Shown: positions 15,252-24,645 of the stretch, one piece after another
How positions within the stretch are numbered: position 1 is the stretch's first letter
Layout of the letters: each line of letters starts with the position of its first letter
Assembly: GCA_965249275.1 (NCBI GenBank)
Contig: CBDFLQ010000006.1
Location: 640,434-704,433 of the forward strand
Direction of reading: 5' to 3'
DNA from: Dehalococcoidia bacterium
GTDB lineage: Bacteria; Chloroflexota; Dehalococcoidia; Plut-88900
DNA: 64,000 bases
Notes under the pieces: model-generated
Told to the model about the DNA's origin: nothing
What the model saw: only the letters and a program-made list of their open reading frames with translations
The model's database searches: none
Position numbers and translations under genes: made by a program

Positions 15252-15713
15252 CTACTCAGCTTTCCAAACCTGATGATGCATTTGATCATCTCGGAGTTTG
15301 GTGAATGCCACGCTTTCAATGGAAATCGCGAAGCAGTGGAACTCAGGCTCTTCAGGCCGGAACCCGATCGCCGCAAATACAGCATTACCGAACCGACGCC
15401 GCTCATCGAGATCAGTGATGTCCACTGCGTGCCCATATACCTTGAACTCTCCTTCACTGCCCTTGCGGTCGACAACCGTGCTGTGTACCACACAACGCGG
15501 GTCGCGCAGCAAGTCCAGTGCTTTGCGCGATTTCCACATCATGCCCAGATACAGGTTTCCATCGACGATGAACGGTTCCACGGGCGAAATGCGCGGCCAG
15601 CCATCCCGCCGGAGCGTCCCGACCAATGCCAGGCCCGTCCGAGCAAGCTGCGCCTCACCCAGCGCCGCCAGCTCCGGCTCCCGCTCGGCGAACTGCCCCC
15701 AAGTTACCGCCAT
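15252..15713 (-). CDS. Pyridoxamine 5'-phosphate oxidase-like (FMN/F420-binding split-barrel) family protein
   Basis: 153 aa. The pattern LATVGRDGWPRISPVEPFIVDGNLYLGMMWKSRKALDLLRDPRCVV is typical of the PNPOx-like fold. Confidence 0.6.
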   Translation of the reverse strand: MAVTWGQFAEREPELAALGEAQLARTGLALVGTLRRDGWPRISPVEPFIVDGNLYLGMMWKSRKALDLLRDPRCVVHSTVVDRKGSEGEFKVYGHAVDITDLDERRRFGNAVFAAIGFRPEEPEFHCFAISIESVAFTKLRDDQMHHQVWKAE

Positions 15714-15819
15714 TGACCTCTCATCTTCATTGCTTCTCTATAACGGAATACTACAGACGCACGTGCCCTGCAGCAAACACAACCCCGCCTCCACCTGCTC
15801 CCGAGACTCTGGATATGCT

Positions 15820-16647
15820 ATGGTGTCGCGGCAATCGAATCACACCGGCAATAACGATGAAGGGGGTCCTGCATTGGCATCATCCATAGACCTGAGCGGA
15901 CAGATTGCGATAGTAACCGGCGGTTCGAGGGGCATTGGAGGAGCAATAGCCTTAGGGCTCGCACGGTCTGGGGCCGACGTAACCATCGCCGACCTCCCCC
16001 AACGTCGAGAGGACAGCTCCAAGACCCTCGCCCGCATCGAAGAGGCAGGCGGCGGCGGCCAGGCCCTTGACGTGGATGTCACCGACCCCGACCAAATCCG
16101 AAATGCAGTCTCCCAGACCGTTGCTGAAAAAGGCCGCCTGGACATTATGGTCAACAACGCCGGGATCACAATTCGCGGCTCTGCCCTGGACCTCACCCCC
16201 GAGCAGTGGGACCGCCTCCACAATGTCAACCTCAGGGGAGTGTTCTTCGGTTGCCAGGCCGCCGCCCGAGAGATGATGAAGACGGGAGGGGGCAGGATCG
16301 TCAACACCGCCTCGGAGCTCGCCTTTGTCGTTCCCAGGAGCCATATCTCGGCCACTTACATTGCGAGCAAGCACGGGGTGGTCGGCCTGACCAAGTCCCT
16401 GGCCGTGGAATGGGCACAGCAAGGGATCCGCGTCAACGCCATCTCCCCAGGCCCGACCAACACTGACATGATGGCCTCAACAGTCAACGACCCCGAACGC
16501 CTCGCCGTTACGGTAGCCGAGATTCCCATCGGCAGAATGGTCGAACCCCAGGACCTCGTCGGCGCTGTCCTATTCTTGGCCAGCGACCTTTCAGCCATGG
16601 TCACAGGTCATGTCATCCTCGTGGACGGAGGCCGAATACTGGTCTAA
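15820..16647 (+). CDS. SDR-family oxidoreductase
   Basis: Only the last 276 codons of ORF 15298..16647 look coding (IAIVTGGSRGIGGAIALGLA, NNAGI, YIASKHGVVGL). The N-terminal extension would overlap the PNPOx gene on the opposite strand. The ATG at 15820 was chosen as start. Confidence 0.75.
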   Translation: MVSRQSNHTGNNDEGGPALASSIDLSGQIAIVTGGSRGIGGAIALGLARSGADVTIADLPQRREDSSKTLARIEEAGGGGQALDVDVTDPDQIRNAVSQTVAEKGRLDIMVNNAGITIRGSALDLTPEQWDRLHNVNLRGVFFGCQAAAREMMKTGGGRIVNTASELAFVVPRSHISATYIASKHGVVGLTKSLAVEWAQQGIRVNAISPGPTNTDMMASTVNDPERLAVTVAEIPIGRMVEPQDLVGAVLFLASDLSAMVTGHVILVDGGRILV

Positions 16648-16649
16648 TG

Positions 16650-16745
16650 CCGCGGGGCATTCCGCTCGCCCTGTCGTAGATCCGCCGAGGCGGGAGCGGA
16701 GTCGAAGGGTCTCAAGAACGGAATTGGGGTAGGGAGGCGTCCCGT
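16650..16745. repeat. Intergenic repeat, family A copy (…ccgctcgccctgtcg…gccgaggcgg…gtcgaagggtctcaagaacggaattgggg)
   Basis: The core gtcgaagggtc at 16701 recurs at 20263, 20357 and 22413. Flanking strings are shared with the 20295-20400 copy. Confidence 0.5.
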
Positions 16746-16969
16746 CCCCTCTCCATTGACGAAACCTTTGCATAACCTATGTTGGAGGGGTCGGGGCCGC
16801 TCGTGCTGAGGCTCTCGAAGTATGAGCGGAGGTGGAAGTCGTGTCATCAGGATAGAACAACACGTGCAAGCCGCCGTTACTCAAAGGTCGCTTGACGGAA
16901 GAGGGCTGGGTCGAAGATTCGCTGAGGAGACTGAGGGTGATCCGGCTTCGGCGCACATTTAAGCAAAGA

Positions 16970-18505
16970 TCACTCAGCTACTATCGGCTGAGCCACAATC
17001 CACAGGCTGACCACCGTGTAGCCGACCATCAACACCACCATCGGGTACTGGCTTCTTATCGCCGCCCGTGAGCCCATCTTCCTCATCGATATTACGTGGG
17101 CCACGTACACCGCAATCACGTGTCCGATGACTATCGCCCCTACCCCCACAAACCACACCAGCCGAGCGCTGACTACGGATATCTGCACCTGCCAGTCCGC
17201 TGTGCCGAACAGGTCCCAGCCCCACCCGAATGGGTCCGAAATCTCCTTGACGATTAGCTGTCCCTGGATAGCGAGAAACGAGAAGAAGTGGGCCACGTTA
17301 TAGGCCAGCGCTATGGGTATAAGCGATGGTATGTACGCCCGAGCCGTCTCGCCCGTCGATCCCCCCTCCCCCGACGCCAGGTTGGAAATTCGGCAGGTCA
17401 ACAGGTAGGCGCCCATGAAAACAAGGGGCGCTGCGACCAGGACAAGAGTGGTGTTCAAGTCATTGCGGTAGAACTGGACGCCGGTCAGGAAGTACTCCTT
17501 GACGCTTTGCCAGGCCTCGGTCTCCTTAAACCCGTCCAGGGTCACGGTGGACAGCGCCAGGACTATGAATAATACCTCTGAGGTTCGAACGGCCAGGGGG
17601 TATGCGAGCCCGGCGCCCGGGGGCCGAAGGTTCAACTCCCGAGCCCCTTTTGCCCTCTCGAAACAGTCGTAGCAGTTAACGCATTCCTCGCCCGACTCTT
17701 CACAGGTAAGCCCGCACTGGGCGCACCCCTGGGGGTCCGTGGCACATACCTCGGTCACGGCAAACTTGGAGAGGAAGCGGTAGAGAACGGCAAAGGCCTC
17801 GCCGTACTGAAGCCAGGTGTGCTTGCCGAACAGGAACATCCCGCCGAGAGTAACGACGGTGTAGAAGACAATCATTATCCCGATATGGGTCGGGGCGCCG
17901 GCGTGAACGTACACGTTTTCGATCCATGCAAAGCCGAAGAATAGGACGATTGCCGGCGTGACCCCGAGCTCTTCCGGATACCGGAACCCGAGCCCCAACC
18001 TCCGGCCACCCGTGAGCCTCGCGTAGAGGGTCGCTGCCCACTCAAATACGACCTGCCAGGGATTGAGCAGCGCCCACAGGTTCCCTACAAGCGAGAACAC
18101 GTAGCCCAACCCCACCCACCACCCCACCCAGATGAACGCCACCGAGAAATTCAGTATCGAGGCAGGGTTCCCCCAGAAGGCCGTCGCTATCAACAGTCCC
18201 AGCGTCGCGACGGAAATCAACCGCAGGAGGGTCAACGTCAGTACGTTCTCCAGCACGGCCCGGAAGCCCAGCAGTCGATAGAGGTTGAAACGGGCCACGC
18301 CCCGCGCGCCTGGCCTGCCCCGAAGGAACATCCCTACGACAACGAATGAGACCAGCACCGTGGCCCCGGCCCCGTACAGGTAGAGCCACAGGGGCACCGG
18401 AAGATCGTACCGCTCCCCAAACCCGTGGGCGTAGGCAAGGCCAGGCTGAAACAATACGAGGGCCGCGAAGAACAACCCGCCTAGCAACAGGACTCGCGCC
18501 ATCAA
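16970..18505 (-). CDS. Polytopic membrane protein (about 12 TM helices). It has a cleavable signal peptide, mature N-terminus HGFGERYDLP, and a 7-Cys loop (CATDPQGCAQCGLTCEESGEECVNCYDC).
   Basis: 511 aa. The signal peptide ends …GLAYA then HGF. There are many hydrophobic spans and a Cys-rich hydrophilic loop around residues 263-291. Last gene of a three-gene minus-strand operon. Confidence 0.6.
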   Translation of the reverse strand: MMARVLLLGGLFFAALVLFQPGLAYAHGFGERYDLPVPLWLYLYGAGATVLVSFVVVGMFLRGRPGARGVARFNLYRLLGFRAVLENVLTLTLLRLISVATLGLLIATAFWGNPASILNFSVAFIWVGWWVGLGYVFSLVGNLWALLNPWQVVFEWAATLYARLTGGRRLGLGFRYPEELGVTPAIVLFFGFAWIENVYVHAGAPTHIGIMIVFYTVVTLGGMFLFGKHTWLQYGEAFAVLYRFLSKFAVTEVCATDPQGCAQCGLTCEESGEECVNCYDCFERAKGARELNLRPPGAGLAYPLAVRTSEVLFIVLALSTVTLDGFKETEAWQSVKEYFLTGVQFYRNDLNTTLVLVAAPLVFMGAYLLTCRISNLASGEGGSTGETARAYIPSLIPIALAYNVAHFFSFLAIQGQLIVKEISDPFGWGWDLFGTADWQVQISVVSARLVWFVGVGAIVIGHVIAVYVAHVISMRKMGSRAAIRSQYPMVVLMVGYTVVSLWIVAQPIVAE

Positions 18506-18547
18506 GTTGCGCCCTCTACGTCATTGGCAGAGATAAGGACCTCAACT

Positions 18548-19324
18548 CTACCTCGGCAGGACTTCCAGGAATCCAATTACGGTCTCTTCAGGAGCGGCCA
18601 CAGTACCCTCGCCACCGCTATCGTCCATGCTGTCGTCATCCGACTCCCCACTCAAGGTCACCGTGGTCATGGCAACAGTGCTGTAGTAGCAATGCTCAGT
18701 GTCCGACAGTCTGACCATAATGTCGTGCTCACCCGCAGACTCCACCGATACCTTTGCCCCAGGTACCAGGTACATTCCTCGAAACTCTCCATCAACGTAG
18801 AGATGCCAGTGACCCTCGGCTACTTCCCTTTCGGTATCGGTCAAGGTCAACTCGAAGTTCTCCAAGACAACCCCGACTTCGATTTCGCCCACATCGCTCC
18901 CCGGCTCCGCTTTCACCTGTACGGTCGGGGGTTCGGCGCCCTCGGGCAGGGGGACAACGTCGGCACAACCCGAGAGATCAGTTGCGTCATGCGAATGCCC
19001 GCCGGCCGAGCCGGGATGCATCGCCATCGCAAACCGACCCTCCAGGTTGGCGACAAACTCCATCCTGGTGACCCCTTCCTGGCCTAGTTCGTCCTCGAGG
19101 TCATACCCGTGAAGATGAAGTGTCCCGGCTTCATCTGAGGTGATAAAGAGGACAACGGTGTCGCCATTCTTGACCCTGAACACCGTCGCCTCCTGTTCCA
19201 GTACCCTGTCCCTGATATCGAGGTTGAACTCCACCGTCTCGGGCGCCGACCCCGAGCAGGCTGCTATTAACAGCAACCCTACGGCGGCTAGCCCCACGAC
19301 CAGAAAGCTCACGCTTCTAAACAT
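18548..19324 (-). CDS. Lipoprotein with a cupredoxin-like N-domain (HLHGYD…AMAMH) and a second His-containing beta domain (GHWHLYVDGE); putative metal-binding.
   Basis: 258 aa. It has a lipobox (LLIAAC), a His/Met-rich spacer (MHPGSAGGHSHDA) and an acidic C-terminal tail. Its ATG overlaps the upstream gene's stop. Confidence 0.6.
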   Translation of the reverse strand: MFRSVSFLVVGLAAVGLLLIAACSGSAPETVEFNLDIRDRVLEQEATVFRVKNGDTVVLFITSDEAGTLHLHGYDLEDELGQEGVTRMEFVANLEGRFAMAMHPGSAGGHSHDATDLSGCADVVPLPEGAEPPTVQVKAEPGSDVGEIEVGVVLENFELTLTDTEREVAEGHWHLYVDGEFRGMYLVPGAKVSVESAGEHDIMVRLSDTEHCYYSTVAMTTVTLSGESDDDSMDDSGGEGTVAAPEETVIGFLEVLPR

Positions 19325-19950
19325 CAGTTCTTATCCTGCTCCAGAGTGTCAGTGTCAATAACGTCTGACCCGCCGTTTTGTTGCGCTTTCTTCCTGCGCC
19401 GGTCCCAGCGTCTCCACGCTTCCAGCATGGCCAACAGCAATGGAAAAGCCAGTACTACTATGAGTATTGCAAAAATCTTGCTGGCTGGGCCCCGGACCTC
19501 GAGAGGAAAACTCGCCTCGGCGGTACCGAGGGGCCCGTCGATGGAAAGTCCCAAGATCCAAAGGCCTTCCGCGTCCATGTCGACGTTTACGTCGTACAGA
19601 TCGGGGTTTACGGTAGACCTGTTGATGCTGAAGGAGTTTGGCTCCAGTCCCGATTCTTCAGGTGGAGTAACAGAGAGCGCAAGCGCCGCTCCGGTGATGA
19701 TTTCTCGAGTAGCTGGGTCAGAGATGCTGAAGGTGAAGTGGACCAGGCCCGCTGTGGGGTTGCCGGGGGTGGAGGTCACAACGACCTGATACCCCTCGAC
19801 CTGCTCTTCGAAGATGGTACTGGCATCGACACCCCCATTCGCCAAGGCCCGAGGAGCGACAACCACCATCAGCGCGCCGAAGATGACCAGGATGCCGATG
19901 AATAGGGGCGCAGCTCTAGGACTCACACGAAGATGGGAAGGGAAGAACAA
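19324..19950 (-). CDS. Secreted beta-sandwich protein with a C-terminal TM anchor and basic tail (architecture resembles YcnI/FixH/YtkA)
   Basis: 208 aa. It has an N-terminal signal peptide, a soluble domain of about 130 aa, and a C-terminal hydrophobic helix (IFAILIVVLAFPLLLAML) followed by RRWDRRRKK. First gene of the operon. Confidence 0.55.
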   Translation of the reverse strand: MFFPSHLRVSPRAAPLFIGILVIFGALMVVVAPRALANGGVDASTIFEEQVEGYQVVVTSTPGNPTAGLVHFTFSISDPATREIITGAALALSVTPPEESGLEPNSFSINRSTVNPDLYDVNVDMDAEGLWILGLSIDGPLGTAEASFPLEVRGPASKIFAILIVVLAFPLLLAMLEAWRRWDRRRKKAQQNGGSDVIDTDTLEQDKN

Positions 19951-19962
19951 ACCAGGTACCGG

Positions 19963-20127
19963 TTATCCGTCGCTCAAGCCCGATACAATTGTGATCTCTT
20001 CAAGGGCCTTGCGGCAGTCGGGGCAGCGGCGTGTCTTGTACATCCGGATCGTAGCGTCGATGTCCATGTATTCCTTGTCCCGCGGGACCTTGCTCCAGAT
20101 CACGTCGCAGGAATTGCAGATCAACAC
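19963..20127 (-). CDS. Candidate small zinc-ribbon protein (about 54 aa, GTG start) upstream of the envelope operon
   Basis: Hand translation gives VLICNSCDVIWSKVPRDKEYMDIDATIRMYKTRRCPDCRKALEEITIVSGLSDG, with a CxxC…CxxC pattern. It is not in the ORF track because it has no ATG start. Confidence 0.3.
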   Translation of the reverse strand: MLICNSCDVIWSKVPRDKEYMDIDATIRMYKTRRCPDCRKALEEITIVSGLSDG

Positions 20128-20179
20128 GTTGGCATTCGCTGAATATTAGCCTCCCTAGTCGGCCCCGCGTAACAACTAA

Positions 20180-20400
20180 TTTTATCACACCCCTTTCCGT
20201 CATCCTCGAGTCCGATTTGGGATCCATCTCAGCGGGCGGGGGGCCGTTCGCCCTGAGCGTAGTCGAAGGGTCTCAAGAACGGAATGGGGCGGGGATTCCG
20301 CTCGCCCTATCGAAGATGCGCCGTGGCGTGAGCGCGCTGTAAGTCCGCCGAGGCGGATCGAAGGGTCTCAAGACCGGAATGGGGCGGGCCTCCCCCCGAC
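20180..20400. repeat. Intergenic repeat family A, two tandem copies, plus family-B-related flank
   Basis: Core gtcgaagggtctcaagaacggaatggggcgggg at 20263 and atcgaagggtctcaagaccggaatggggcgggcc at 20357. The string gattccgctcgccctatcg…gccgaggcgg is shared with the 16650 copy. Confidence 0.5.
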
Positions 20401-20463
20401 GCGCGAAACACGGGCCCGAGCTAAGCTCGGGCCCGTGTCCCAAACTTTGTGCCGAAAGTGCCT

Positions 20464-22260
20464 CTAAGGACTGTACCCCGAACCCCCGGAGCCGCCCTCA
20501 TAGCTGGGCAGCGTATTCACAAGGTAGGCCAGCACGTAGTCGAAATCGTTGTACGAGTCCAAGTAGGACAGACCCGACCTGAAAGACTCCAACCGACTCT
20601 TTAGCGCCCTCAAATCACTGCCTATTAGCGATGCCCCTTCTGCCTCCACGTACGGCAGGCTGCCGTAGCTATCGGAGGCCAGGGCCACTATCGACCCGAA
20701 CCGCAGCAAGTCGTCACCCGAGTCGTCAAATCGGATGTCGTTGTAACCCCGAATCTCCGCGTCCTGCTGCCTCGTTTCCCCGCTGATGGGAGTGACCCAC
20801 CTGACATGCACGTCTCCCAGCCTGATGGGCTGTCCACTCGGGGCTCCGGCCCTGTGAGTCAGCCGTATTTCGTAGAAGACGGTTGTCGCAGTGCCGGATG
20901 GAATCTCCGCAAACTCCTTCCGGTTCTCCTCGAAGGCCTGGTCGGGGGCTATCCGATTCTCGTACCCGACAAGCCGCCACGAATCAACCGACGCAGGGTC
21001 CCACTCCACCTGGGCTCGAGTCTGGTCGGCAAAGGGAGTCGAGATTGTGGTCCAGTTATCCCGGCTGAACGTGGCCCGGGCCTGGCTTGCATCATCCAGA
21101 TACCTGTACCATCCGTTGCCATACTGCGCCAGCTGCTCCAGCAGGTAGTCGTTGTAGTTCTCGATACCCACCCCGATAGTGATAAGCCGCAGCGGATTGT
21201 TGCTTTGCCGGTCGTCCGCCGTCCGCAGGATTGCAAAGGGGTCCGTCGCATCCACGTTGGCAACGCCGTCCGACATCAGGATCACGTAGTTGTAGGAGTC
21301 GGGGCGGTCATACCGCATCCGGTCGGCGATGCGTACGCCCAGGTTAAGTCCGGCCTGCACGTTGGTGCTGTTGTTGGGCCGAAGATTCCCTATGGAATTG
21401 GAGACCGCTCGGTCATCTGGCCTCCGGCTTTCAACCGTGTACCGGCCGATGATGTCATCCGAAAATTGGACGACGGATATGCGATCATTACTCCCAAGGC
21501 TATTTCTTATCGAGTCCGCCGCCGCCCGAGCTATTTCCACCCGGTTCCCACTCGACATTGACCCCGAGGCATCCAGCACCAGTGTTACGTTGAGGGGCCT
21601 GTTATCATCCCTCACGTCCGGGGCCTGGAACGTTATCCGGGCCAGGTGCATCTCGCTCTGCAGCGGGTGCTCCACCAGCGCCGAGGAGATTGCAAAGCTG
21701 TTGTTGTCTCTCGGCCGCGCGTACTGGTAGTTGAAAGCGTTGACCCATTCTTCCGCTCTCACTGAGTCCGGGTCGACCTGGTATCCTTCCCTCGCCCAGT
21801 TCAGAGCAAGCTGGAACGACGTGCGGTCGGTGTCCAGGCTGAACGTGGAAGTTCTGTCCCGAGATGTCGCAACCAACGGGCTGCGCCGGTAGTCCTGGAA
21901 AGTTGTCGCCGCAGGCACGGCGGTCGGGAACGGCGCTTCTGCACTGTCTGCGCCTGAACGGGCCCATGCAAACGGGGTTGGTTCCGGCATCGCCGTCGCC
22001 CCTACAGAATAGGATGAAGAGCTATCTTGACCGGAGTCGGCGCTTTCGGCCATCGCTGTCGGCTCTGGCATCGCCATCGCCGGCACCGCAGTTGATGTGG
22101 CCCTCACCTCGTACGAATCCGAGTCGGGCGTATAGGAAGTACTATCTTGTCGCTCCCTCATCGCCCCGGGCGTTGCCGTCGCACCTTCTGCACAAGCGAA
22201 CCCCACTATCGCCACCACCATTGTCAAAATCAGGGCCATTGCTAAATGTCTAAACAGCAT
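20464..22260 (-). CDS. Secreted von Willebrand factor A (VWA) domain protein, YfbK-like
   Basis: 598 aa. It has a signal peptide, low-complexity Ala/Thr/Pro repeats, and a MIDAS motif (LVLDASGSMSSGNR). VWA-interacting N-terminal and DUF3520-like C-terminal regions flank the VWA domain. Confidence 0.75.
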   Translation of the reverse strand: MLFRHLAMALILTMVVAIVGFACAEGATATPGAMRERQDSTSYTPDSDSYEVRATSTAVPAMAMPEPTAMAESADSGQDSSSSYSVGATAMPEPTPFAWARSGADSAEAPFPTAVPAATTFQDYRRSPLVATSRDRTSTFSLDTDRTSFQLALNWAREGYQVDPDSVRAEEWVNAFNYQYARPRDNNSFAISSALVEHPLQSEMHLARITFQAPDVRDDNRPLNVTLVLDASGSMSSGNRVEIARAAADSIRNSLGSNDRISVVQFSDDIIGRYTVESRRPDDRAVSNSIGNLRPNNSTNVQAGLNLGVRIADRMRYDRPDSYNYVILMSDGVANVDATDPFAILRTADDRQSNNPLRLITIGVGIENYNDYLLEQLAQYGNGWYRYLDDASQARATFSRDNWTTISTPFADQTRAQVEWDPASVDSWRLVGYENRIAPDQAFEENRKEFAEIPSGTATTVFYEIRLTHRAGAPSGQPIRLGDVHVRWVTPISGETRQQDAEIRGYNDIRFDDSGDDLLRFGSIVALASDSYGSLPYVEAEGASLIGSDLRALKSRLESFRSGLSYLDSYNDFDYVLAYLVNTLPSYEGGSGGSGYSP

Positions 22261-22339
22261 TTCTCGGACCTCCTTCTGGTCGTGTATAGACTGTTAGACG
22301 TTTAGCCCTTGTCTTTTGTTCCCTTCCGCTCCCACCTCT

Positions 22340-22430
22340 CCATCCATCATTCTCGTGCCCCGACACGGGAATCCACTCCCCAGGCGCGGGGCCGCTCACC
22401 CTGAGCGACGAGTCGAAGGGTCGAGCGAGG
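22340..22430. repeat. Intergenic repeat family A, partial copy (ccgctcaccctgagcgacgagtcgaagggtc)
   Basis: Near-identical to 20244-20273 (ccgttcgccctgagcgtagtcgaagggtc). Confidence 0.45.
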
Positions 22431-22620
22431 GGTGGCCCACCTTTGCCAATCCGTCGCCTGTGCCACCCCACCCACCCCCTACCCCTCCCGATGCCCCGCG
22501 AGGGATCTAAAGCGCCCGCCTGCACAACACAGATGCCTATCCGACCATCCTTGTCCCTCTTCCACCCCCTTCATTCCCGACTCCGATCGGGAATCCATCC
22601 CCCTCCCCCCAGTACTGAAT

Positions 22621-22670
22621 TAGAGGCCCACGTGCGTGCTCTGCACGCACGTGGGCCTCTATTCTTATCT
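22621..22670 (+). terminator. Strong orphan intrinsic-terminator-like hairpin: 19-bp perfect stem with a 3-nt loop, followed by TTCTTATCT
   Basis: tagaggcccacgtgcgtgc-tct-gcacgcacgtgggcctcta is a perfect inverted repeat, then a U-rich tract. No annotated plus-strand gene lies upstream. It is followed by a second 12-bp GC palindrome (22667-22704). Confidence 0.45.
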
Positions 22671-22704
22671 CCCCCTCTCCCTTAATGGCCCTAAGGGAGA
22701 GGGG
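22667..22704. repeat. GC-rich perfect palindrome: tccccctctccc-ttaatggccctaa-gggagaggggga
   Basis: 12-bp arms, read directly from the sequence. Confidence 0.4.
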
Positions 22705-23521
22705 GATCAAGGGGGTGAGGGTTCCCCTGTGGGGCTGGGGCGGTGTCCCCCCAAGTGTGACACGACCCCCTTGACCCGATATGAACATTAGTGCTATTCT
22801 CCCCACCGTTCGAACACCACCCTAACTATCTCAAGGAGGAACCAAAAACCCAGGGAAGCCCACCCGACCCACCCGAGGACTCAACGTCCCAGCCCATCCC
22901 AAAGGGCGGCCCACGCGCCGCCCCACGGCTCAAGCGAAAGCCGCCATCTCCTCATCCATAGGTCCCGGCCCACCCTTCCCCAACCCTGGCGATGGAAGAC
23001 GCCTTGGATTCGTAAAACTGAAGACTCCACCACCTCTTACCAGGTGGTCGAGAGCAGGTCTCCTCTCTTGTGAGTGAGGAGGTCTGAAAAGACCCGACGC
23101 CACCGTGCGAAGCGGGCAGGGCGCTCATTAAGTGCCCACGCGGAGGGGCCGGACCGAGCCGAGAAGTCCTCGGTGTCCCCCGTGTCTAAGTCGTTTCCGC
23201 CGTCGCTCCCGGCTCCCGGACGCTTCGGCAATGTTTGAATTACTACTCCTGTGGGGCCTACAGCTGGACCCGGCCCCCTTAGGCTGCTCTAAAGCAGTAC
23301 AGCCAACCCACGTGTAGGAGCCGTGTCGGACCGCCCGCCCCGGTCGAGTCCATGCAGCAGTCGAGCAAATGGGGCAGCGGCAGGTGCGTCCCCACCCCGG
23401 GACGCCCGAATCCCCGCTGTATCGCAACAGGGGCACCTTCCAAAGAGCGTCTTCCATCGCCAACCCACCAACCAAAAAACCCAAAGCAGTCCCAACCCCC
23501 CACAACTGAATCCCCCACCCC

Positions 23522-23530
23522 TGCTATAAT
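23522..23530 (+). promoter_or_regulatory. Extended -10 promoter TGcTATAAT followed by CGGCTC, 30 nt upstream of the amidohydrolase gene
   Basis: Sequence ctgctataatcggctcatcccctcccccGGAGGccacacATG. A GGAGG ribosome-binding site lies 7 nt from the ATG. Confidence 0.45.
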
Positions 23531-23559
23531 CGGCTCATCCCCTCCCCCGGAGGCCACAC

Positions 23560-24645
23560 ATGAGACCGCCATTTCAGGTCATAGACTCCGACGGCCACAT
23601 CAACGAGCCCGAAGAGATCATCGCTACCTACTTGCCGCCTCCCTACGACGCCTATCTCCACGCCTGGAAGCCCAATGCAGAGGGCGCCATCCACTACAAC
23701 AACACCTTGGTGCCCAAGCAGCCCGGCATGGACCCCACCATGGGCGGCACCCTGGGCACGAACGGCCCTGCAGGTTTCCCCTTCCCATCCGACTGGCTTG
23801 CAATCATGGACGAGGCCGGAGTTGAGAAGACCTACCTCTATCCCACCGCCTTCCTTCCCTACTCCATGATGGTCGACCCCGAATACACCGTCGCCGTGAC
23901 CCGGGCCTACAACTCCTTCATCCACGATCACTGGCTGCAGGTCAACGACAGGTTCGGCGCGGTCGCCGTCATGCCCCTGCTGGACGCCGAGGAGTCCGCC
24001 AAAGAGCTGCGAAGGTCGGTGACAGAGCTCGGTTTTGCGGGGGCATTCACACCCGCCGTGGGCTACGGACTTATCGGCAGGAAGCAGAACCACCCCTTCT
24101 TCGCCGAGGCCCAGGACCTCGACACCACCGTCGCCATCCACGGCGGCCACGCTACGGCCGAATACATCCCCTACACCCGGTTCATCCAGCGCCACGCCGT
24201 AGGATTCCCGGTTTCGCAGATCATCCAGATGACCAGCCTCGCCCTGGAGGGAATCTTCGAGCTATTCCCCACCCTCCGCGTCGCCTTTCTTGAAGCCGGA
24301 TGCACATGGGTGCCCTACATGCTCGACCGGCTCGACGAGGAATGGGAGCTCCGCGGCAAGGTCGAGGCCCCCAACTGCAAGCGCGCTCCCAGCGAGTACC
24401 TACGCGGCAACAACGTATTCGTCCACCTTGAACCCGACGAGAAACTCCTCCCTCAGACCATCGACATCCTCGGCGACGACGCCCTGGTCTACGCCTCCGA
24501 CTGGCCTCACTGGGACAACGACTTCCCCAACAGCATCGACCACATCTGGGGTAGGGAAGACATCACAGAAGGTCAGAAACGGGCCATCCTCAGGGACAAT
24601 CCCCTCGCCATGTACGGCATCAGTGACTCGGAAGGAGGCGTTTAA
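23560..24645 (+). CDS. Amidohydrolase-2 family hydrolase
   Basis: 361 aa. N-terminus VIDSDGHINEP and C-terminus SDWPHWD. Confidence 0.7.
   Translation: MRPPFQVIDSDGHINEPEEIIATYLPPPYDAYLHAWKPNAEGAIHYNNTLVPKQPGMDPTMGGTLGTNGPAGFPFPSDWLAIMDEAGVEKTYLYPTAFLPYSMMVDPEYTVAVTRAYNSFIHDHWLQVNDRFGAVAVMPLLDAEESAKELRRSVTELGFAGAFTPAVGYGLIGRKQNHPFFAEAQDLDTTVAIHGGHATAEYIPYTRFIQRHAVGFPVSQIIQMTSLALEGIFELFPTLRVAFLEAGCTWVPYMLDRLDEEWELRGKVEAPNCKRAPSEYLRGNNVFVHLEPDEKLLPQTIDILGDDALVYASDWPHWDNDFPNSIDHIWGREDITEGQKRAILRDNPLAMYGISDSEGGV

Follow-up and report, generated by a model that had tools for sequence, protein, structure and literature searches.

An operon of four genes in a Dehalococcoidia bacterium probably encodes a copper-handling module, since every informative association of its gene families involves copper proteins (CopC-CopD, Sod_Cu, YtkA/CtaK and COX2). 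It lies at positions 16970-20127, minus strand, of the 64,000-nt contig stretch that was analysed, here called the window. At its centre is gene 4, an undescribed polytopic membrane protein; genes 2 and 3 encode membrane-tethered extracytoplasmic proteins, and gene 1 a small CxxC protein. The case for copper is one of comparative genomics. We give about even weight to a specific form of this reading, a membrane-tethered module that relays copper inward. The main rival is the opposite direction, copper delivery to envelope cuproenzymes, over which the inward direction is only slightly favoured. A set of extracytoplasmic copper binders acting with a membrane protein is a known kind of system; what is new is that the central family is unnamed, very widespread and without detectable relative. 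The first-pass annotation of this DNA had suggested a metal, possibly copper, trafficking or redox module unlike CopCD, Nos or Sco/Cox systems, and this is supported by the copper-linked partners, neighbours and fusions described below and by the lack of any CopD or other Pfam match to gene 4.

More than 2,284 homologues of gene 4 were recovered among 8,000 scored candidates, and the family forms 6,486 clusters at 50% identity (1,528 of them at E<=1e-30) and is present in at least 593 species genomes. Its hosts are mostly Dehalococcoidia/SAR202, joined by Rokubacteria, Methylomirabilis, Trueperaceae and one gammaproteobacterium; every source name in the family is "hypothetical protein". Gene 4 and 55 diverse relatives matched no Pfam family, gene 4 itself matched nothing in NCBIfam, and its profile found nothing significant among PDB sequences. 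When the AlphaFold2 (AF2) model of gene 4 (predicted local distance difference test score, pLDDT, 77; predicted template modelling score, pTM, 0.78) was compared with the PDB by Foldseek, no fold relative was found, including among MFS, APC/LeuT, RND, CDF, ClC and other folds. No confident homology to a non-metal transporter emerged, a relationship that by the first-pass annotation would have spoken against a metal role. An internal 5+5 repeat, as is typical for secondary transporters, was not detectable at the sequence level. Descent from CopD was considered and rejected: alignment by hhalign of the family with neighbouring CopC-CopD-cytochrome c proteins gave a probability of 1.3%, and none of 56 members had a Pfam match.

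The topology of gene 4 was derived from hydropathy, the AF2 helices and counts of Lys plus Arg per loop across the family (positive-inside rule). Ten hydrophobic segments follow the signal peptide and the loop counts alternate as expected, so that the 12 transmembrane (TM) helices originally proposed are replaced by a signal peptide and about 10 helices. Both termini of the mature protein are predicted to lie outside the cell, as are loops 2-3, 4-5, 6-7 and 8-9, with loops 1-2, 3-4, 5-6, 7-8 and 9-10 inside. Natural fusions agree with an external C-terminus, because every domain added there is extracytoplasmic (SodC, YtkA or solute-binding-protein-like). One relative is fused to a Cu/Zn superoxide dismutase (Sod_Cu, E=6.6e-34) and one to a YtkA domain. 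The Rokubacteria and Methylomirabilis homologues (P0124, P0125, P0214; L056:4950-7739; L072:4923-7646) carry a C-terminal extracytoplasmic domain of ~380 aa whose relatives are the family-5 solute-binding proteins (PDB 7fi3, E=1.2e-7). Other relatives (P0123, P0152) have C-terminal TPR repeats.

Among 127 diverse representatives, His27, His406, His462, His470, Glu196, Asp324, Asp424, Asn119, Arg294 and several Trp, Pro and Gly residues are conserved at 94% or more, and Met223 and Met493 in 85-92%. The family-wide invariants comprise three membrane-embedded histidines, acidic residues at the outer face and a histidine at the N-terminus. The mature protein is predicted to begin H-G/A-F-G with His27 as its first residue, because His27 directly follows a textbook signal-peptidase site, AxA↓H (the arrow marks predicted cleavage). 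Of 118 family members, 108 have Ala at position -1 and 99 have Ala or Val at position -3. A mature protein starting with His had been predicted before from the single sequence, and both the cleavage site and the 95% conservation of His27 agree with it. In this predicted His-first form gene 4 resembles the histidine-brace proteins CopC, YcnI, LPMO and PmoB. An unlikely but specific possibility is that gene 4 is itself a membrane-integral histidine-brace copper protein, whose N-terminal His would fold onto His406, His462 and His470 and either gate a new class of permease or perform membrane redox chemistry, with the cupredoxin-like protein as its dedicated partner.

The long loop 5-6 contains seven Cys in the window, and six of these are conserved in the subfamily as CxxCxxxC-x6-CxxCxxC. 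The subfamily alignment (A1) shows no variation at C261, C264, C268 and C278 and next to none at C275 and C281. The loop had been described as a seven-Cys element made of two C-x6-C-x2-C half-sites; the loop and its seven cysteines stand, and the conserved pattern is limited to six of them and to the subfamily. Its K/R-rich flanks predict a cytoplasmic position, which answers on which side of the membrane it should lie. The corresponding region is devoid of Cys in 75 of the 127 representatives (~60% of the family without the loop), and the loop is an accessory, subfamily-specific insertion, not the core of gene 4 function. The loop's sole similarity, to the zinc-ribbon protein eL40, was not significant (E=0.68).

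These features bear on the possibility that gene 4 is a redox protein or enzyme, either a histidine-brace copper oxidoreductase or a bis-His haem electron carrier with cupredoxin and cytochrome c partners, its Cys6 loop carrying Fe-S as in the cupric reductase CcoG. We regard this as very unlikely. An N-terminal His is a hallmark of the LPMO and PmoB copper sites (PMC10952591), and this shared feature, the three conserved intramembrane histidines, the six-Cys cytoplasmic loop of the subfamily, the cytochrome c domain fused to a neighbouring CopCD protein and the likeness of gene 3 to multicopper oxidases all speak for it. However, a ferredoxin-type Fe-S reading of the loop is unsupported: the spacing is not CxxCxxCxxxCP, there is no Fer4 match, and most of the family lacks the loop. 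Three conserved TM histidines are too few for two bis-His haems, the fold of gene 4 resembles neither cytochromes b nor PmoC nor oxidases, the gene 3 protein lacks the type-1 Cys required of a blue-copper electron carrier, and no substrate-related genes recur in the neighbourhoods.

The gene 3 protein has the lipobox ...LLLIAAC-SGS, whose Cys23 all 32 sequences retain, as expected of a lipoprotein. Its AF2 model (pLDDT 84) consists of two beta-sandwich domains, with a conserved C-terminal strand (248-256, GFLEVxPR) that returns to the first domain. Model, Foldseek matches and family profile all indicate a cupredoxin beta-sandwich: the top Foldseek matches are multicopper oxidases and Cu nitrite reductases (E=3e-6 to 1e-4), and the family profile matches nitrosocyanin (E=1.4e-4) and two-domain laccases. 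In Pfam, 13 of 32 homologues match Cupredoxin_1, 12 of 32 Cu-oxidase_2 and 9 of 32 DUF4399 (PF14347; best 6.8e-5); gene 3 itself reached no cupredoxin model at cut-off (Cu-oxidase_2 alone, E=0.025) and matched DUF4399 weakly (E=0.13). The 32 sequences have in common invariant residues H70, H72, H103, G171, H172, H174 and H211, and nearly invariant H112, D178 and G179. H103 aligns with the nitrosocyanin copper ligand His98, and the position of the ligand Cys95 is occupied by Ala. The type-1 ligand set (His, Cys, His, Met/Gln) was not found in gene 3, the lipobox Cys23 being its sole conserved Cys. The gene 3 cupredoxin domain is Cys-less, carries a three-His site and is no blue-copper electron carrier. 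The DUF4399-like domain, with its GHWHLYVDG motif, is an insertion before the last cupredoxin strand, because single-domain relatives of 120-150 aa retain HxHGYD...GRF...H...LxYLEIxP. The lipoprotein character, two beta domains, cupredoxin likeness and motifs previously noted for this protein were all recovered. Its linkers, described as His/Met-rich, are not consistently so: they are low-complexity and variable, with His, Asp and Gly and, in relatives, some Met, and read GSAGGHSHDATD and GESDDDSMDDSGGEG in the window.

Gene 2 was said to encode a secreted beta-sandwich tethered by a C-terminal TM helix with a basic tail, and this architecture was confirmed: a signal peptide ending ALA↓NG is followed by the domain, a hydrophobic helix and a basic tail, which together define a membrane-tethered extracytoplasmic beta-sandwich protein. 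The domain scores E=4.9e-5 (24.3 bits) against Pfam YtkA (PF13115), below the 25.9-bit cut-off, and 13 of 35 homologues match YtkA at E<=0.01 (best 1.1e-6). By these scores gene 2 is a divergent YtkA relative that falls short of a scored member. The family profile also finds, at E=5.5e-4, the "Copper resistance protein" of PDB 9ll2. H71, G129 and W131 are nearly invariant, H71 being the sole conserved His, and the MPEMPGMPAM stretch of 9ll2 aligns with a Met-free segment of gene 2. The Bacillus subtilis YtkA is CtaK, a lipoprotein acting in CuA assembly, and in the copper importer YcnJ the domains run CopC-CopD-YtkA (PMC13344008, PMC9145763).

Gene order was examined in 84 related genome loci and, for the divergent Cys-less subfamily, in 85 further metagenome loci. 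Of the 84, a YtkA-like gene is present in 68 and a cupredoxin-like gene in 65; the genes are most often arranged His-YtkA-Cup-M (25 loci) or YtkA-Cup-M (11). In the Cys-less subfamily, 64 loci extend far enough upstream to be judged, and in 46 of these the membrane gene is immediately preceded by a cupredoxin-like gene, at a median gap of 6 nt. The family-wide core is a cupredoxin-like gene followed by the membrane gene, because this pairing holds also in the divergent subfamily. The conservation that the first-pass annotation had taken as decisive was found for the His motifs and the gene order; the Cys motif is kept just within the subfamily.

A gene of ~750-800 aa belongs to the cluster at 19 of 84 loci, mostly directly before the membrane gene, and the three copies scanned are fusions of CopC (1e-20), CopD (1e-17) and cytochrome c (1e-11). 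This triple fusion, with the cytochrome c domain C-terminal, occurs in Dehalococcoidia at L053:2550-4838, L028:2683-4938 and L018:2675-4990. A haem domain on a putative copper importer suggests Cu(II)/Cu(I) redox chemistry coupled to transport. Loci with CopCD also encode, between the YtkA-like gene and CopCD, a secreted protein of 257-380 aa (L053:1726-2499, L049:579-1685, L077:1335-2474). Like gene 4, this protein is predicted to start with His once processed (A↓HE/HD/HG..VVGFxNEPAYEG); it is without a Pfam match, fell into the cupredoxin-like family on clustering and may be YcnI-like. COX2 and COX1 genes adjoin four of the loci, and the locus with the SodC fusion also has a cupredoxin gene upstream. 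A secreted beta-propeller of ~390 aa with paired-His motifs is divergently encoded beside the cupredoxin/membrane pair in 17 loci (for example L087:4303-5475 (-), L094:2350-3528 and L080:3124-4305). It gives recurrent weak matches, under the cut-off (best E=5.6e-6), to SBP56, the copper-dependent methanethiol oxidase family, and could be a client cuproenzyme. A family of ~138 aa is the first operon gene in 42 of 84 loci (such as L002:4468-4860 and L066:700-1116) and is absent from the window; its members, which match nothing in Pfam, have a TM helix at the N-terminus and PPxKPP(Q/R) at the C-terminus, and they carry the motif DHHFAERxPxHxH and other His-rich stretches.

That the metal is nickel, zinc, cobalt or iron, with the copper links incidental, appears very unlikely. 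Under such an explanation the cupredoxin/membrane pair would be an iron pairing of the EfeUOB or Fet3/Ftr1 kind, or the N-terminal His a nickel site like that of NikM. Cupredoxin_1 is also the type of the EfeO N-terminal domain, and Fet3p is among the Foldseek matches of gene 3. A ZnuA/ABC-3 system lies upstream in locus L003, the family-5 solute-binding proteins, to which the ~380-aa fused domain is related, include nickel binders, and His-rich sequences suit Ni and Zn. Yet all specific associations found are with copper proteins, gene 4 is devoid of RExxE iron motifs, and the recurrent gene clusters include no Ni, Co or Zn enzyme or regulator.

For the route of copper through the module we infer both mechanism and direction. 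All extracytoplasmic parts are membrane-tethered, as expected of a monoderm envelope. The tethered His-rich proteins would capture Cu(II) and pass it to the N-terminal His of gene 4, exposed by signal-peptide cleavage, which with the outer-face residues E196, D324 and D424 may form a site of the histidine-brace type. Copper could then be relayed to the cytoplasmic face via the intramembrane His406, His462 and His470, together with the conserved Met223 and Met493. On that side the Cys6 loop would accept Cu(I) in the subfamily that possesses it, as the gene 1 protein may also do. Copper so imported or held would ultimately serve extracytoplasmic cuproenzymes.

The same components could work in the other direction. 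In outward delivery, or cuproenzyme maturation, gene 4 would hand cytoplasmic or membrane-held copper to the tethered cupredoxin-like and YtkA-like proteins as chaperones, for clients such as a haem-copper oxidase, SodC or the SBP56-like propeller, in a role analogous to that of CcoI/CopA2 with SenC/PccA or of Sco with CtaK. We consider this rather unlikely, although less so than any other alternative. The fusion to superoxide dismutase, the adjacent COX2/COX1 genes and the divergent propeller genes each supply a plausible destination; YtkA/CtaK is itself a CuA assembly factor (PMC13344008, PMC9145763), and a putative importer, CopCD, within one operon suggests a complementary rather than a duplicate function. 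However, N-terminal-His and multi-His sites characteristically serve Cu(II) capture and not Cu(I) export, for which known exporters use Cys/Met; the solute-binding-like fusion points to uptake; an energy-coupling domain is missing; and no cuproenzyme gene adjoins the operon in the window.

Several observations weigh against the inward relay that we prefer. Gene 4 resembles no transporter fold and shows no detectable repeat, and residues 19-37 of its AF2 model have pLDDT <50, so that a proximity of His27 to the membrane histidines is hypothetical. The co-occurrence with CopCD, a putative importer, argues that gene 4 does something non-redundant, and the SodC fusion and the neighbouring COX genes suit import and outward delivery equally. 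The His-rich sites would suit Ni or Zn also. Of the soluble partners, gene 2 has a single conserved His and lacks the Met-rich motif of its nearest solved relative, and the cupredoxin domain of gene 3 is without the type-1 Cys. Beside the window operon neither a copper-responsive regulator nor a cuproenzyme gene was seen.

Among characterised systems, the operon appears to parallel CopC-CopD/YcnJ with YcnI in function, without homology. Both would combine a membrane-tethered Cu(II) binder and an N-terminal His exposed by signal-peptide cleavage with a polytopic membrane protein; essential intramembrane His, association with YtkA and supply of haem-copper oxidases would be further likenesses (PMC13344008, PMC12362106). 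A CopC-CopD-cytochrome c gene also belongs to the same cluster at 19 of 84 loci. In contrast to those systems, gene 4 is not homologous to CopD, as the Pfam and hhalign results indicate, its N-terminal His is on the membrane protein itself and not on a CopC domain, and the soluble partner is a cupredoxin-like three-His protein instead of CopC or YcnI. With CtaK and PCuAC-Sco the operon shares the YtkA-like fold of gene 2, its tether at the outer face and, in some family loci, adjacent COX2/COX1. It differs in that gene 2 is anchored by a C-terminal TM helix and not by lipid, scores below the Pfam cut-off, and appears to conserve neither the His/Met ligand set (CtaK His118, PMC9145763) nor the 9ll2 Met-rich motif; there is no Sco gene in the window operon.

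Gene 3 is comparable in its first domain to two-domain laccases, Cu nitrite reductases and nitrosocyanin, HLHGYD resembling the laccase HxHG and H103 the nitrosocyanin His98. It differs in lacking both the type-1 Cys and the complete set of four HxH motifs of a trinuclear cluster, and it is a single, lipid-anchored cupredoxin domain with a DUF4399-like insert that is always paired with a membrane protein. The resemblance of gene 4 to NikM/CbiM and HupE/UreJ would be one of concept: a polytopic metal permease with a processed N-terminal amine and His in its metal site. Sequence, Pfam and fold similarity to these proteins are lacking, the gene 4 motif is HGFGxRYDLP, and there are no energy-coupling factor (ECF) partners. 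FixG/CcoG with FixH presumably offers another likeness, in that its membrane protein bears a Cys-rich metal site on the cytoplasmic side and acts with an anchored beta-sandwich of the FixH/YtkA class. Gene 4, however, has no Fer4 or FixG Pfam match, its Cys spacing is different, and the loop is dispensable in most of the family.

The four open reading frames (ORFs) are real genes rather than chance ORFs, because their order is kept in relatives and substitutions in gene 1 fall mainly at third codon positions. A relative at 88% identity has the identical four-gene order and identical flanking genes, and relatives at ~50% identity keep genes of ~190 aa, 135-155 aa and ~515 aa in tandem. The ORF list confirmed the four co-oriented minus-strand genes and their overlapping or abutting boundaries as first described, at the coordinates in Table 1: base 19324 is common to the TGA stop of gene 2 and the ATG start of gene 3, and gaps of 12 nt and 42 nt separate genes 1 and 2 and genes 3 and 4, respectively. 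The motifs singled out at that stage (HLHGYD, AMAMH, GHWHLYVDGE, AYA↓HGFGERYDLP and the Cys-rich loop) were every one found in the translations. The start codon of gene 4 is ambiguous: an ATG at 18502, one codon after the TTG at 18505, is an alternative, with GAGGG upstream, and the closest database relative (P0001) has 510 aa. GC content of the window is ~60% and even throughout. A promoter and terminator scan of the locus was uninformative, and an Rfam scan of 15500-24000 returned no match.

Table 1. Positions in the window of the four genes and of selected features within them
Feature	Position	Strand	Description
Gene 1	19963..20127	-	54 aa, cytoplasmic, CxxC...CxxC, zinc-ribbon-like, without signal peptide
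Gene 2	19324..19950	-	208 aa, YtkA/CtaK-like extracytoplasmic beta-sandwich, signal peptide and C-terminal TM anchor
YtkA-like domain of gene 2	19552..19806	-	aa 49-133, coordinates of the Pfam match; includes H71 in GxxH
C-terminal TM anchor of gene 2	19417..19485	-	~aa 156-178, followed by RRWDRRRKK; conserved in homologues
Gene 3	18548..19324	-	258-aa lipoprotein, cupredoxin-like with inserted DUF4399-like domain
H70-L-H72 of HLHGYD, gene 3	19109..19117	-	aligns with two-domain laccase "slHvHGlD"; both His invariant
H172-W-H174 of GHWHLYVDG, gene 3	18803..18811	-	in the inserted DUF4399-like domain; G171, H172 and H174 invariant
Gene 4	16970..18505	-	511-aa polytopic membrane protein, signal peptide and ~10 TM helices
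Signal peptide of gene 4	18428..18505	-	aa 1-26, ends AYA
His27 codon, gene 4	18425..18427	-	predicted mature N-terminus (HGFGERYDLPVPL); invariant in alignment A1 (the window's subfamily), 95% of 127 representatives
Cys-rich loop of gene 4	17663..17746	-	aa 254-281, loop 5-6, long, K/R-rich flanks, predicted cytoplasmic
His406 codon, gene 4	17288..17290	-	mid-membrane in TM8, AF2 helix 384-423; 97% of 127 representatives
His462 to His470, gene 4	17096..17122	-	TM9, AF2 helix 447-476; 94% and 95% of 127 representatives

Gene 1 gave sub-threshold zinc-ribbon matches only in Pfam and NCBIfam. Its product is 70-93% identical in loci L001, L004, L005 and L006, and the DNA differences among relatives are concentrated at third codon positions, a pattern indicating purifying selection. 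It is lineage-restricted and confined to close relatives, because just 12 clusters, all 71-94% identical, were found in 5.8 billion proteins. In the sub-lineage of the window, gene 1 is present in place of the His-rich ~138-aa gene.

Upstream of the operon, across a 336-nt spacer, lies a gene for a 598-aa vWF_A/VWA/YfbK_C protein with a lipoprotein-like N-terminus (20464-22260 (-)). It was considered as a fifth core member and rejected, being syntenic just in L001, L005 and L006, which are the closest relatives, on the opposite side in L011 and L012, and separated by a repeat-bearing spacer; it is probably outside the module. Both sides of the operon carry copies of a dispersed intergenic repeat of ~75-95 nt (16655-16728 and 20255-20384), one downstream of gene 4 and two, adjacent and 95 nt apart, upstream of gene 1. 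Its core, CCCATTCCGKTCTTGAGACCCTTCGA on the minus strand, has three matches with <=3 mismatches against 0 expected and no Rfam match, and it may be a REP (repetitive extragenic palindromic)- or MITE (miniature inverted-repeat transposable element)-like element.

Our literature search found no paper on the gene 4 membrane family, and the pairing of a cupredoxin with such a membrane protein is undescribed in the literature that could be reached. Little is understood of how bacteria import copper and direct it to the cuproenzymes of the envelope, with only CopCD/YcnJ, CcoA and a few chaperones characterised, and the gene 4 family is dominant in the marine SAR202/Dehalococcoidia group. His27, His406, His462 and His470 are directly testable positions. 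Should gene 4 prove to be a copper permease or insertase whose N-terminal His site is built in, models of copper homeostasis would gain a new component, and the family would be a marker of copper acquisition in ocean and soil bacteria that are abundant but uncultured.

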